Below, one piece after another: positions 60,232 through 63,660 of a stretch of DNA of 64,000 bases (position 1 is the stretch's first letter; the number at the start of each line of letters is the position of its first letter). The stretch is taken from positions 1-64,000 of IMG/VR virus record IMGVR_UViG_3300043788_000114; one strand, written 5' to 3'. The notes below the pieces were generated by a model. It saw nothing but the letters and a program-made list of their open reading frames with translations, did no database searches and had not been told where the DNA came from. A program made the translations under genes and the position numbers. Source of the DNA: a virus.

Positions 60232-60455
60232 AGATCACCTCAAGGCAATTGGATGCCGCTTTGCGGCAAATCGTCTGTATAATTCTGCTCAAGTATGGCA
60301 ACACCCTGTTTCCAAAAGCCTGACTCGAATCCACCGGTTTGCGGCGTTCACAACGAACGTCTGGTGCCGGAACAGATTCGCGTGGACGACATGAAGATCG
60401 ATTGCCTGCGCTGCCCGAGAACCGGAAGCGTGGTGAAGGATTCGAAAAAAGAGAG

Positions 60456-60484
60456 TTGACAGGATTTCTGGACCGTGAGAGGAT
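60456..60484 (+). promoter_or_regulatory. Promoter of the tRNA operon
   Basis: TTGACA-17-GAGGAT. Confidence 0.5.
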
Positions 60485-60491
60485 TTGAACC

Positions 60492-60560
60492 GTGAAGACT
60501 TTGTGCCTCAGTTCGCTCTCCTCGTATAGCTCATTACTGAGCGGCAGCGGGGGTTCGTGA
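60492..60560 (+). CDS. Ser/Leu/Cys/Tyr-rich attenuator leader peptide
   Basis: MKTLCLSSLSSYSSLLSGSGGS; GTG start 7 nt after the -10 box. Confidence 0.7.
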   Translation: MKTLCLSSLSSYSSLLSGSGGS

Positions 60561-60590
60561 ACTGAGTCCAGAGTGGAATTCAGTGAAGCG

Positions 60591-60622
60591 GCCTCCGAGA
60601 AATCGGGGGCTTTTTAGTTTTT
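60591..60622 (+). terminator. Attenuator terminator
   Basis: GCCTCCGA-GAAA-TCGGGGGC followed by TTTTTAGTTTTT. Confidence 0.8.
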
Positions 60623-60624
60623 GC

Positions 60625-60709
60625 GCGAGAGTGGCGAAATGGCAGCACGCAGCGGTCTTAAAAACCGTTGGAGAAATCCGTGGGGGTTCAAGTCCCCTCT
60701 CTCGCACCA
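60625..60709 (+). tRNA. tRNA-Leu(TAA)
   Basis: GCGAGAG/CTCTCGC acceptor, CT-TAA-AA loop, CCA. Confidence 0.9.
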
Positions 60710-60710
60710 T

Positions 60711-60785
60711 GAGCCTGTACCCAAGTGCTAAGGGAGCGGTCTGCAAAACCGTGATGCGGTGGTTGGATTCCACTCAGGCTCTCCA
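60711..60785 (+). tRNA. tRNA-Cys(GCA)
   Basis: GAGCCTG/CAGGCTC, CT-GCA-AA, discriminator T, CCA. Confidence 0.85.
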
Positions 60786-60796
60786 AGTTTAAATGT

Positions 60797-60886
60797 GGCC
60801 CCGCTGGCGGATTGGCCCAGCCACTAGTCTTAGGAACTAGCGTCCTTAGCCGGACACTGTGGGTTCGAATCCCACCGGGGCTACCA
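60797..60886 (+). tRNA. tRNA-Leu(TAG)
   Basis: CTAGT-CT-TAG-GA-ACTAG, GTTCGAATC, CCA. Confidence 0.9.
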
Positions 60887-60893
60887 AAGTTTT

Positions 60894-60980
60894 GCCGATG
60901 TGCTGGAATTGGAAGACGGACTGCACTCAAAACGCAGCGCGAGCAATCGCATGGGAGTTCGATCCTCCCCATCGGCACCA
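60894..60980 (+). tRNA. tRNA-Leu(CAA)
   Basis: GCCGATG/CATCGGC, CT-CAA-AA, CCA. Confidence 0.9.
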
Positions 60981-61031
60981 GATTAAGGCCGTATTAGGCG
61001 ACGAACTAAATTTAGTCGTGCGGCTAATTTT

Positions 61032-61119
61032 GGAGAGTCAACCGTTGAGGCTGACGGCGCGGTTTGCTAAACCGATGGTTCCCTTTGGGAATGGGCATCG
61101 TGCGCTCGGCTCTCCGCCA
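61032..61119 (+). tRNA. tRNA-Ser(GCT)
   Basis: GGAGAGT/GCTCTCC, TT-GCT-AA, long variable arm, GCCA; atypical T-loop. Confidence 0.8.
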
Positions 61120-61141
61120 TGTTTGTGCAGTAAACGTGTTT

Positions 61142-61229
61142 GGGGAGTAAACCTGTCGGGCGACAGGGCTCGTCTGGAAAGCGATGCGGACCCATCGGGT
61201 TTGCGTTTCGAGTACGCTGCTCCCCGCCA
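61142..61229 (+). tRNA. tRNA-Ser(GGA)
   Basis: CT-GGA-AA, long variable arm, GCCA. Confidence 0.85.
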
Positions 61230-61230
61230 C

Positions 61231-61318
61231 GGAAGCGTTGGGCATTTGGCAGGCCCACCCCGCTCGAAACGGGACACACCGCAAGGTGTTGGGGATTCGA
61301 CTTCCTCCGCTTCCGCCA
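61231..61318 (+). tRNA. tRNA-Ser(CGA)
   Basis: GGAAGCG/CGCTTCC, CT-CGA-AA, GCCA. Confidence 0.85.
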
Positions 61319-61324
61319 CTGTTT

Positions 61325-61414
61325 GGATACGTTAGGCATGTGCCAAGCCTACCCCGTTTGAAGCGGGACGCTCCTGAAAGGGACTTGGGTGTTGGACTCA
61401 CCCCGTATCCGCCA
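61325..61414 (+). tRNA. tRNA-Ser(TGA)
   Basis: GGATACG/CGTATCC, TT-TGA-AG, GCCA. Confidence 0.8.
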
Positions 61415-61419
61415 GATGT

Positions 61420-61506
61420 GCAGCGTATGACCGGGCGCACGGTCACCGCTCTGTAAAAGCGGCGCTCATTCGAGCATGGGGAGTTGAAGCCTCTCACGCT
61501 GCACCA
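61420..61506 (+). tRNA. tRNA-Tyr(GTA)
   Basis: GCAGCGT/ACGCTGC, CCGCT-CT-GTA-AA-AGCGG, ACCA. Confidence 0.8.
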
Positions 61507-61510
61507 GAGA

Positions 61511-61585
61511 TGTATAATTGGGGTGTCAGGTGCGTGAACACCCGGCTTACGCCAACCGGAAATGAGGTTTCCGATGACACCCCAA
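61511..61585 (+). promoter_or_regulatory. -10 box plus structured leader sequestering SD and ATG of the HNH gene
   Basis: TATAAT 61513-61518; TTGGGGTGTCA pairs with TGACACCCCAA; GAGGT inside the GGAAAT/GTTTCC hairpin. Confidence 0.7.
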
Positions 61586-62404
61586 GAGCAAAGTGTACCA
61601 GCGCCAACGAAGTGGTGCCAGAAGCATCTACACGAAATCTCAATATCTACGAAAAGATGCCAAGAATGCCGGAAGGCGTATTTTCGGAAATACAGAACGC
61701 TTAACAGAGAGCACCTAAATTCTCTTGATCGAGAACGGTATCGAAAAAAACACGAAGGCCAACTTCGAAAGTATAATGGCTCTCCGGGCGGTATCGCCAG
61801 AGCGACCAAATCACGTCGCGAGGCTCTCGATAAGTATTACTCCAATCCAAAGATTTGCAAAAATTGCGGAGGCCCAATAGTCGTCAAGGATGGCGAGAAG
61901 ATTCCGCAAGCAAGGAAGCGAACCTTTTGCACACGGCGGTGCGCTGCCATTTTTAACAATCATTTACGGAAAAAAGAACGAGCGTGCAAGACCTGCGGGG
62001 GAGCAGTACGCAGAACAAGCAAGAGAATGCGTAACTACTGCGACGACTGCTTAAATGTGAAACTCCTTGCGATTACTGGAAAAATATCGAAACGTGCGTT
62101 ATTTACACGGAGAAATGGGTACCAATCGGCACGGTCGCAAATCCGAAGACACGCAGAGACGGTGTTCAATCGCTCCGGAAAGAAGAAGGTCTGTGCCATT
62201 TGCGGGTATAGCCTGTACGTTGAAATCGCTCATTTGCGAGCGGTGGCCGATTTTTCTGAGGACGCGCTCATTGAAGAGATCAACGCGGTAGGTAACTTAA
62301 TAGCCTTTTGCGCCAATCATCATTGGGAATTTGACAACGATAAACTTGTCGAGGATAATGTAACGGCGGAGTGGACTGGAGATGGTTCCAGCTTGGTCTC
62401 ATAA
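61574..62404 (+). CDS. HNH homing endonuclease within the tRNA array
   Basis: CAICGY...EIAH...N...NL...CANHHWEFD; several CxxC modules. Confidence 0.85.
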   Translation: MTPQEQSVPAPTKWCQKHLHEISISTKRCQECRKAYFRKYRTLNREHLNSLDRERYRKKHEGQLRKYNGSPGGIARATKSRREALDKYYSNPKICKNCGGPIVVKDGEKIPQARKRTFCTRRCAAIFNNHLRKKERACKTCGGAVRRTSKRMRNYCDDCLNVKLLAITGKISKRALFTRRNGYQSARSQIRRHAETVFNRSGKKKVCAICGYSLYVEIAHLRAVADFSEDALIEEINAVGNLIAFCANHHWEFDNDKLVEDNVTAEWTGDGSSLVS

Positions 62405-62442
62405 GCCAAATCACGGCGGTTCGATTCCGCTCTCCGCAACCA
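62365..62442 (+). tRNA. tRNA-Met(CAT), initiator-like 1:72 mismatch
   Basis: TTGGT-CT-CAT-AA-GCCAA, GTTCGATTC, ACCA. Confidence 0.85.
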
Positions 62443-62759: not shown

Positions 62760-63232
62760 TGGCGCGTAAGCGCTGAGTGGAGGCCGGGGGCCGCAAGGCA
62801 CTGGGTCCGTTCTCGGACGTAAACCGAGTGGTGGAGGCGGCGGCAACGCCGCCCCTAGTTTTCGAGTACGCATGTAGAAGGTGATGGAGTTTGATTTCGG
62901 ACGTGGGTTCAACTCCCACCGGCTCCACCAAGAAGCACTTGAACGAGAAGCGCCGACTTACGATCATGAACACAACGTCTCTGTTTTCGGCTAACTCAAA
63001 AAAGCGAAGCTCGTTGGCTGTCGCTCAATGGTTCGAGTGTTTCTTTGTGGGGCCGTCACGGTTTCGACGGAATTAGAGGACATCACGCAGTTCATGCCGG
63101 ATGCTGTGGCCCACGAAACGGGACAACAGAAAACTAGGTGCAGAACCATTTGCACTGCCAATGGCTGCTTAAACACCAGTCATTCGAGGGTGGCCGCAAT
63201 ACTCGTCAAAGAACCATGCGGCAACAAATTCT
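62760..63232 (+). ncRNA. ssrA: Circularly permuted two-piece tmRNA; outer ends approximate
   Basis: 3' acceptor piece ends CGGCTCCACCA at 62930; 5' piece starts GGGGCCG at 63049 (G3.U70); tag AEPFALPMAA* at 63140-63172. Confidence 0.9.
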
Positions 63233-63393
63233 ATGCCCGAGAATCGGAGAAAAAAGCAGCGGAGAAGGAAAGTCCTGCGACAAATCGAGCGGCGCAGGCA
63301 GTTCCAGCGAGTCAATGAAATCCTGTTGCGCTCCGCTTTCGGGGTAGAATGGAAAAAGTACCGCCAGCGTGGAATCGCGGTGCCGTAAGTTTC

Positions 63394-63483: not shown

Positions 63484-63648
63484 ATGTCCAAGAGATGGAG
63501 AAAGCGCCAAGCGAGGATGGCAGCGACAGCCGCCGCGCAGCCTGCTGTTACGGAGCAACCTGCGGCGCAACAGACAGCACCTCCGCCCGCTGCCCAGCCT
63601 GAACGCGTACAGAAGATTCCTACGTGGCCATGGCGTGCGGTAGGGTAG
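63484..63648 (+). CDS. Small hypothetical protein
   Basis: SD GGAG; MSKRWRKRQARM... Confidence 0.5.
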   Translation: MSKRWRKRQARMAATAAAQPAVTEQPAAQQTAPPPAAQPERVQKIPTWPWRAVG

Positions 63649-63660
63649 AGAAAAGTTTTC

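Follow-up and report, generated by a model that had tools for sequence, protein, structure and literature searches.

The multivalent attenuators of enterobacteria are the closest described counterparts of the locus presented here: the thr leader contains Thr and Ile codons, and the ilvGMEDA leader contains Ile, Leu and Val codons. The Escherichia coli attenuators of trp, his, leu, pheA and pheST each respond to a single amino acid, for which the leader has a row of identical codons, and the case of pheST demonstrates that attenuation can control a component of the translation apparatus; we know of no attenuator of this type that controls transfer RNA (tRNA) genes. In phages, tRNA genes are usually seen as helpers in codon usage or as spares against host defences that cleave tRNAs and, to our knowledge, the control of their expression is largely uncharted. 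In this study, we have analysed a stretch of 64,000 nucleotides (nt), positions 1 to 64,000 of the IMG/VR virus record IMGVR_UViG_3300043788_000114 (hereafter, the window), which constitutes the first 64 kilobases (kb) of a 138,516-bp single-contig genome of 54% G+C, and in which a short open reading frame (ORF) and a terminator precede nine tRNA genes for Leu, Cys, Ser and Tyr. On the basis of the sequence and of modelled RNA folds, we consider it likely that this arrangement is a ribosome-mediated leader-peptide attenuator, in which the speed of decoding of the cognate codons would gate transcription of the tRNA operon.

Like the thr and ilvGMEDA attenuators, the phage locus has a short leader rich in several regulatory codons, an intrinsic terminator and, by prediction, mutually exclusive pairings of four RNA regions (1:2, 2:3 and 3:4), with ribosome stalling expected to favour read-through. 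It differs from them in that its targets are tRNA genes and not biosynthetic enzymes, the product being the very molecule that would be sensed; in that the phage leaders serve up to 12 tRNAs, with about one to three codons for each and no tandem runs; and in that they are phage-borne, probably leaderless and present three to a genome, with one cassette per tRNA operon. With the trp, his, leu, pheA and pheST attenuators it shares a stop codon placed beside region 2 and, by prediction, termination when the leader is untranslated, and it departs from them in the range of amino acids that would be sensed. The T-box riboswitches resemble it in sensing the state of tRNA and in choosing between a terminator and an antiterminator, but they bind a single uncharged tRNA directly, without translation and with a conserved motif, whereas the phage sensor would be a multi-codon ORF. 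The T-box covariance model gave no match at E≤10 either in positions 60440-60630 or across the 18 kb of the tRNA region, and a T-box riboswitch was rejected on that account.

Two further systems share part of this design. Mycobacterial leaderless polycysteine short ORFs are reported to be cysteine-responsive attenuators (bioRxiv 10.1101/834739); they too are codon-specific and lie at the 5′ end of the transcript, beginning with AUG or GUG, but they sense a single amino acid and act on cellular genes, with targets other than tRNAs. The trn operon of Anabaena sp. PCC 7120, an extra tRNA array as in the phage, is normally silent and comes on when translation is impaired, under the control of promoter repeats and of the TrcR repressor (PMC8421152, PMC10272220). 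Unlike the phage cassettes, it is neither codon-specific nor phage-borne, and the words 'attenuat', 'leader' and 'terminator' have no occurrence in PMC8421152. A search of the full-text literature, with subscription journals and supplementary files outside its coverage, returned no description of tRNA genes controlled by leader-peptide attenuation. The mechanism considered here is classical, and what would be new is its tRNA-operon target and the design of one codon per tRNA.

Leader codons and the tRNA genes downstream

The leader ORF lies between a promoter-like site and the tRNA genes, ending 64 nt short of the first of them, and an intrinsic terminator separates it from these genes; the first tRNA gene begins 13 nt past the T run of the terminator, with no other promoter in between (coordinates in Table 1). 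The initial annotation of the window had described a promoter, a 22-codon ORF whose codons 4 to 17 specify only Leu, Cys, Ser or Tyr, and nine tRNAs. The ORF was recovered at the same coordinates and with exactly the codons that had been listed. As for the promoter, the perfect TTGACA and the 17-nt spacer stand, the best match to the -35 and -10 elements (6+3 of 12 positions) being found 7 nt before the start codon, but the -10 hexamer GAGGAT agrees with the consensus at only three of six positions, which is why the site is absent from the list of the promoter scan. Both the -35 and its spacing to the -10 are kept in relatives. Six of the nine tRNA genes were called by ARAGORN at its default setting, whereas Ser-gct, Ser-gga and Ser-tga appeared at a relaxed threshold only; all nine have CCA ends, and neighbours adjoin. 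The Rfam tRNA model (E≤1) detects only four of the nine, none of them a Ser or Tyr gene, and the Ser and Tyr genes are therefore atypical.

Under standard wobble rules, the leader contains at least one codon that is read by each of the nine tRNAs; of its Leu, Cys, Ser and Tyr codons, only CTC, which it uses twice, has no tRNA in the operon, both as previously proposed. Cognate codons make up 14 of the 21 codons of the leader, an enrichment expected of an attenuator. Chance was assessed over 156,233 stop-free 21-codon windows, taken from the six frames of the 138.5-kb genome. Coverage of all nine tRNAs is reached by 88 of these windows, and its combination with at least 14 cognate codons by a single one, which is the leader locus itself. 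The leader also holds the longest run of Leu, Cys, Ser and Tyr codons in the six frames of the genome, with 14 codons, the next runs having 10 and 9.

Two other cassettes are present farther along the same genome. At 74.9-75.1 kb, a promoter, a 28-codon ORF and an intrinsic terminator precede genes for Trp, Met, Ile-tat, Lys (two), Arg (three), Val, Thr, Ile and Gly; the GTG start lies 7 nt past the -10, and a G-rich stretch stands ahead of the stop codon. The leader of this 75.0-kb cassette covers 12 of its own 12 tRNAs and ranks first among all windows of the genome when these are scored against the anticodon set of its operon. The leader of the 68.6-kb cassette likewise covers 12 of 12, and in a genome scan with the anticodon set of its Asn-to-Arg operon the top window starts at 68591, its combined score being tied with that of one other window. 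In this case, an HNH-like ORF (68809-69420) is interposed between the cassette and tRNA-Asn.

When 16 leaders from six genomes are taken together, 164 of the 167 tRNAs encoded by a leader's own operon have a codon in that leader, compared with 98 of the 364 tRNAs encoded by other operons. The corresponding counts of cognate leader codons are 237/374 for the own operon and 103/1004 for the others. The codon-anticodon match is thus specific to the operon directly downstream.

The same organization recurs in related uncultured phages, which were found through the neighbouring glycosyltransferase and terminase, and five of whose contigs were examined across the whole tRNA region. All five have the same four operons and, among the genomes that hold the region, leader family 1 occurs in 6/6, family 3 in 5/5 and family 5 in 5/5. 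Ten distinct leaders stand before the Leu/Cys/Ser/Tyr operon, all of them rich in those four residues and, within family 1, the relatives keep the codon set while changing the codon order. Eight extra loci, whose tRNA lists are uncurated ARAGORN calls at a relaxed threshold, show coverages of 11/11, 11/11, 7/7 and 5/5 (family 1) and of 7/8, 6/6, 10/10 and 10/11 (family 5). The extra family 5 loci were retrieved by an exact 18-nt match, and so the conservation of that 18-nt block in this set follows from the way in which the loci were collected. A wider search for leaders of the first family with a 26-nt pattern returned only the two contigs already known, and a search with a 16-nt pattern returned five stretches, namely two known genomes and three unrelated chance matches.

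Predicted folds and the proposed switch

Both hairpins on which the initial annotation had built its proposal were recovered. The terminator scan lists 60590-60611, with nine pairs (six of them G-C), a loop of 4 and a T run thereafter. The antiterminator pairing of CGGGGGT (60548-60554) with GCCTCCG (60591-60597) is found in the minimum-energy fold when a ribosome mask of 27 nt is centred on codon 8 or 12 and the RNA is ended before the 3′ arm of the terminator. In the ribosome-free leader, the predicted fold combines the terminator with a 1:2 pairing, which is an addition to the earlier proposal. In the focal leader, the probability (P) that the terminator 5′ arm is held upstream is 0.84-0.88 with masks on codons 3-15; it is 0.28-0.41 when the mask lies between codon 17 and the stop, and 0.29 in the ribosome-free RNA. 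In all 14 leaders modelled, sequestration is on average higher with the ribosome at cognate codons than with the ribosome at the stop; the model represents the moment before region 4 is made, has no shuffled control and is partly trivial, in that a masked region 2 must pair less. In the sister cassette of family 5, comparison of G000 with G001 shows a compensatory pair, a G-to-A change in region 2 being accompanied by a C-to-T change in the terminator arm. Altogether, the predicted folds correspond to a trp-type switch with mutually exclusive 1:2, 2:3 and 3:4 pairings and a stop codon beside region 2.

In the mechanism that we propose, transcription would start about 7 nt past the -10, the RNA would begin at or beside the GTG and a ribosome would translate the 22-codon leader. 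This start, and hence a leader ORF that is probably leaderless, is supported by a fourth operon (Met, permuted transfer-messenger RNA (tmRNA), Asp and two Glu), in which the promoter abuts the tRNA, 6 nt before its 5′ end, and transcription would probably begin some 6-7 nt past the -10. With charged Leu, Cys, Ser and Tyr tRNAs in plentiful supply, the ribosome would reach the TGA and cover region 2, the terminator would form and transcription would stop before the tRNA genes. Slow decoding of any sensed codon would instead keep the ribosome sitting on region 1, so that region 2 could form the antiterminator with the 5′ arm of the terminator and the polymerase could enter the nine tRNA genes. 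The new tRNAs would then quicken the decoding of the leader and turn the operon off, in a negative feedback on tRNA supply. If no ribosome were present, pairings 1:2 and 3:4 would both form and transcription would terminate. We infer in this scheme the transcription start, the translation of the leader, the control of read-through and the natural cause of tRNA depletion, including tRNA cleavage by host defences as the trigger. The design would respond equally to amino acid starvation or to a codon demand outrunning supply, as the switch cannot tell a missing tRNA from a missing amino acid.

A more specific proposal, on which our own judgement is evenly divided, is that each leader is a codon-barcoded sensor of the tRNA pool: with about one codon per operon tRNA, the loss of any of them would stall the ribosome, switch on the replacement set and close the loop. 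Such losses might be caused, for example, by host anticodon nucleases, by phage-induced host shut-off or by codon demand. If attenuation is the mechanism, the phage would have a demand-driven tRNA supply, and classical attenuation would be extended from amino acid biosynthesis to tRNAs, with a direct feedback loop; this would be the first attenuator having the sensed molecule as its output. The cassettes are compact, with about 170 nt each, and would make it testable when and why a phage needs its own tRNAs, while the splitting of the code over three cassettes predicts separately inducible tRNA modules.

Points against attenuation and alternative explanations

A number of results weigh against the attenuation reading. 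When region 4 is included, the terminator prevails at equilibrium in the focal leader wherever the ribosome is placed (P≥0.84) and, in most leaders, the presence of the whole terminator tips the equilibrium towards termination for almost any placement of the ribosome. Antitermination would accordingly need to be a kinetic effect, as in classical systems, and the equilibrium folds with the full terminator are for the same reason not used as support. The 2:3 duplex of the focal leader is weak when taken singly, its energy being reached by 68 of 500 shuffles; over 14 leaders this number ranges from 1 to 421 (six leaders at 20 or fewer of 500, five at 61-84 and three at 231-421), and an excess of 2:3 pairing over shuffles is absent in three of the 14. 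The -10 element is weak and unlisted, as described above, and leaderless GUG initiation is inefficient in many bacteria. At 68.6 kb, the terminator-like hairpin has a poor T tract and is not listed by the terminator scan. The codons for each tRNA are one to three and scattered, not in classical tandem runs, and given so few the response of the switch to the loss of a single tRNA is uncertain. The co-change of codons and tRNAs across genomes is also inconsistent. A CTC-cognate Leu-gag tRNA is present in the same operon of G001, G003, G008 and G009, but no Leu-gag was found in G000, G004, G006 and G007, whose leaders retain CTC; TGC is kept in G006, a relative classed as a provirus, with no Cys tRNA seen, CTA is kept in G003 without Leu-tag, and AGG is absent from four leaders whose operons have Arg-cct. 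Finally, the lists of operon tRNAs are partly hand-curated.

In favour of the attenuator first put forward in the initial annotation are the operon-specific codons, the occurrence of three cassettes, the reordered relatives, the kept starts, an in-frame indel and the predicted folds, and it is on these that the alternatives are to be weighed. One of them, which we hold to be unlikely, is that the leader is a translated attenuator gauging general translation capacity (ribosomes, global slowing or amino acid starvation) and not the specific tRNAs downstream. One to three scattered codons per tRNA would be compatible with such a gauge, and a stall for want of an amino acid would be identical, for the switch, to one for want of a tRNA. 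In this regard, the Anabaena trn operon, itself a stress-induced tRNA array, is reported to respond to general translational stress (PMC8421152, PMC10272220). However, a general gauge needs no operon-specific codon sets, and the own-operon tRNAs are nevertheless served far more completely than the others (164/167 versus 98/364), while the relatives reorder their codons but keep the set.

We find it very unlikely that the leader is an untranslated structured RNA or a signal for processing the tRNA precursor, perhaps joined to a partial terminator that acts constitutively, and that the codon match arises incidentally from composition or from constraints on RNA structure. Between G000 and G001, the sequence from leader to terminator is nearly invariant at the nucleotide level, as that of a structured RNA would be, whereas the flanks and the first tRNA diverge (mean column identity, 87% overall). 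Against this explanation, each of the three cassettes stands out genome-wide for its own anticodon set, and the relatives share the codon set but not the order of the nucleotides. In addition, several features are signs of translation of the leader: the closest relative, G001, has ATG for the GTG of the window together with a synonymous change in codon 3; a family 5 leader carries a 3-nt in-frame insertion with its stop codon retained; the start codon lies 6-10 nt past the best -10 in 18 of 24 leaders; and three family 5 leaders without such a promoter have an AAGG Shine-Dalgarno-like motif 4-16 nt before the ATG. An Rfam scan of 60440-60630 yielded nothing at the gathering score (the best match having 20.5 bits, versus 52), and the comparison of the leader with the tRNA arrays by blastn-short gave matches of 9-15 nt only. 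The lack of meaningful similarity to tRNA genes also ruled out the leader as a derivative of such genes.

It is still harder to believe that the product of the short ORF is a small peptide with a function of its own, hydrophobic or Ser-rich for example, and that the terminator merely ends its transcript. Relatives certainly keep the ORF, and they share parts of its peptide (L-C/S-L-S-S-...-Y, for instance), but there are three peptide families, unrelated to one another, each of which reflects the tRNA set beside it, the order of residues is shuffled among relatives, and the promoter stands upstream of a terminator beyond which the tRNA genes follow closely, with no promoter of their own before them. 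A spurious ORF, arising by chance between promoter and terminator, can be practically discounted, for although an abundance of Ser and Leu is common in the non-coding frames of GC-moderate DNA and complete coverage alone is found in the 88 windows mentioned above, the joint count singles out the leader locus, and likewise the two other cassettes and the relatives. Neither a small peptide nor a chance ORF can explain the leaders, because three unrelated leaders each mirror their own operon.

Genome context and neighbouring features

The source genome comes from soil and, judged from its gene content, is that of a phage. It contains a match to the terminase large subunit and a weaker one to a major head protein family, and its approximately 40 tRNAs plus the permuted tmRNA, at 60.6-76.5 kb, are tandem genes of the kind that makes up a phage tRNA array. 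A DNA search of GenBank phages matched single tRNAs only, with no close cultured relative, and the closest GenBank terminase, from Tunturiibacter phages, has 27% identity. A search for sequencing runs that contain this DNA returned 15 DNA runs and none of RNA.

Table 1. Positions of the features of the Leu/Cys/Ser/Tyr operon and of the two other cassettes, numbered from the first letter of the window
Feature	Position	Strand	Description
Promoter-like site	60456-60484	+	-35 TTGACA 60456-60461, 17-nt spacer, TG 60476-60477, -10 GAGGAT 60479-60484
Leader ORF	60492-60560	+	22 codons, GTG start 7 nt past the -10, TGA stop; in the ORF list
Sensor run	60501-60542	+	Codons 4-17: 14 consecutive Leu/Cys/Ser/Tyr codons
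Region 1	60498-60525	+	Coding-region strand predicted to pair with region 2 in ribosome-free RNA (minimum-energy fold)
Region 2	60547-60574	+	G-rich strand around the stop codon; predicted to pair with region 1 or with the terminator 5′ arm (via CGGGGGT 60548-60554)
Middle hairpin	60561-60583	+	Caps the antiterminator stem; seen in masked folds; identical in G001 save one loop base
Antiterminator	60548-60597	+	Predicted 50-nt stem-loop, 2:3 pairing plus middle hairpin; segment alone -26.1 kcal/mol
Intrinsic terminator	60590-60622	+	Arms 60590-60598/60603-60611, loop GAAA, T-rich tail; hairpin alone -15.6 kcal/mol
tRNA-Leu (taa)	60625-60709	+	ARAGORN default; Rfam tRNA 55.1 bits
tRNA-Cys (gca)	60711-60785	+	ARAGORN default; Rfam tRNA 54.5 bits
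tRNA-Leu (tag)	60797-60886	+	ARAGORN default; Rfam tRNA 29.3 bits
tRNA-Leu (caa)	60894-60980	+	ARAGORN default; Rfam tRNA 41.2 bits
tRNA-Ser (gct)	61032-61119	+	ARAGORN relaxed threshold only; CCA end; default-setting homologue in G001
tRNA-Ser (gga)	61142-61229	+	ARAGORN relaxed threshold only; CCA end; default-setting homologue in G001
tRNA-Ser (cga)	61231-61318	+	ARAGORN default
tRNA-Ser (tga)	61325-61414	+	ARAGORN relaxed threshold only; CCA end; default-setting homologue in G001
tRNA-Tyr (gta)	61420-61506	+	ARAGORN default
68.6-kb cassette	68558-68750 (L001 8558-8750)		Leader 68594-68680; precedes the Asn/Gln/Gly/Thr/His/Ala/Phe/Pro/Arg operon
75.0-kb cassette leader	74982-75068 (L001 14982-15068)		Layout at 74.9-75.1 kb: promoter, 28-codon ORF, terminator

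The operon at 60625-61506 collects all the class II types, those with a long variable arm (Leu, Ser and Tyr), together with Cys, and the genetic code is divided among the three tRNA operons that are predicted to be regulated. Upstream of it, positions 60477-60491, from the -10 to the start site, form over their 15 nt a perfect reverse complement to part of tRNA-Pro-cgg, in the region of its T arm (71382-71396), which may be due to chance or may be a trace of the origin of the promoter.

In the case of the 75.0-kb operon, three Arg tRNA-like genes at 75564-75807 (L001 15564-15807; tct, cct and ccg) have no normal D arm; a short helix encloses their anticodon arm, and they were missed by ARAGORN and Rfam. 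At this site G001 has ordinary cloverleaf versions, and the leader has AGA, AGG and CGG. A TTGACA-like motif is located between the 75.0-kb terminator and tRNA-Trp (L001 15115-15135), too near the tRNA for an ordinary -35, and is also found in G001, G007, L086, L090 and L094.

For the fourth operon no leader was found, the top windows of the genome for its anticodon set being acidic protein stretches elsewhere. At 62331-62442 lies the strongest promoter match of the region (11/12), which ends 6 nt before a tRNA with a CAT anticodon and falls within the final part (3′) of an ORF for an HNH endonuclease (61562-62404). This tRNA seems to have a mismatch between bases 1 and 72, as initiator tRNAs do. 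HNH-type endonuclease ORFs are scattered among the tRNA operons, at 61562-62404, 68809-69420 and 70168-70716, and their positions vary among relatives, which suggests that they are mobile insertions.

The phage-encoded tmRNA of the fourth operon (62787-63263) is a circularly permuted, two-piece molecule, matched by the Rfam family tmRNA_permuted with 75.2 bits and for which ARAGORN gives the tag AEPFALPMAA. Between tRNA-Asp and tRNA-Glu there is a 54-codon ORF (63485-63649), rich in Ala, Gln, Pro and Thr and with a GGAG ribosome-binding site, and similar small ORFs with binding sites occur between other tRNAs (69559 and 69898). A match to a Y RNA-like family (YrlA) at 71731-71791 (L001 11731-11791), with 46.5 bits and thus under the gathering score of 69, sits amid tRNA-like fragments past tRNA-Arg-acg.

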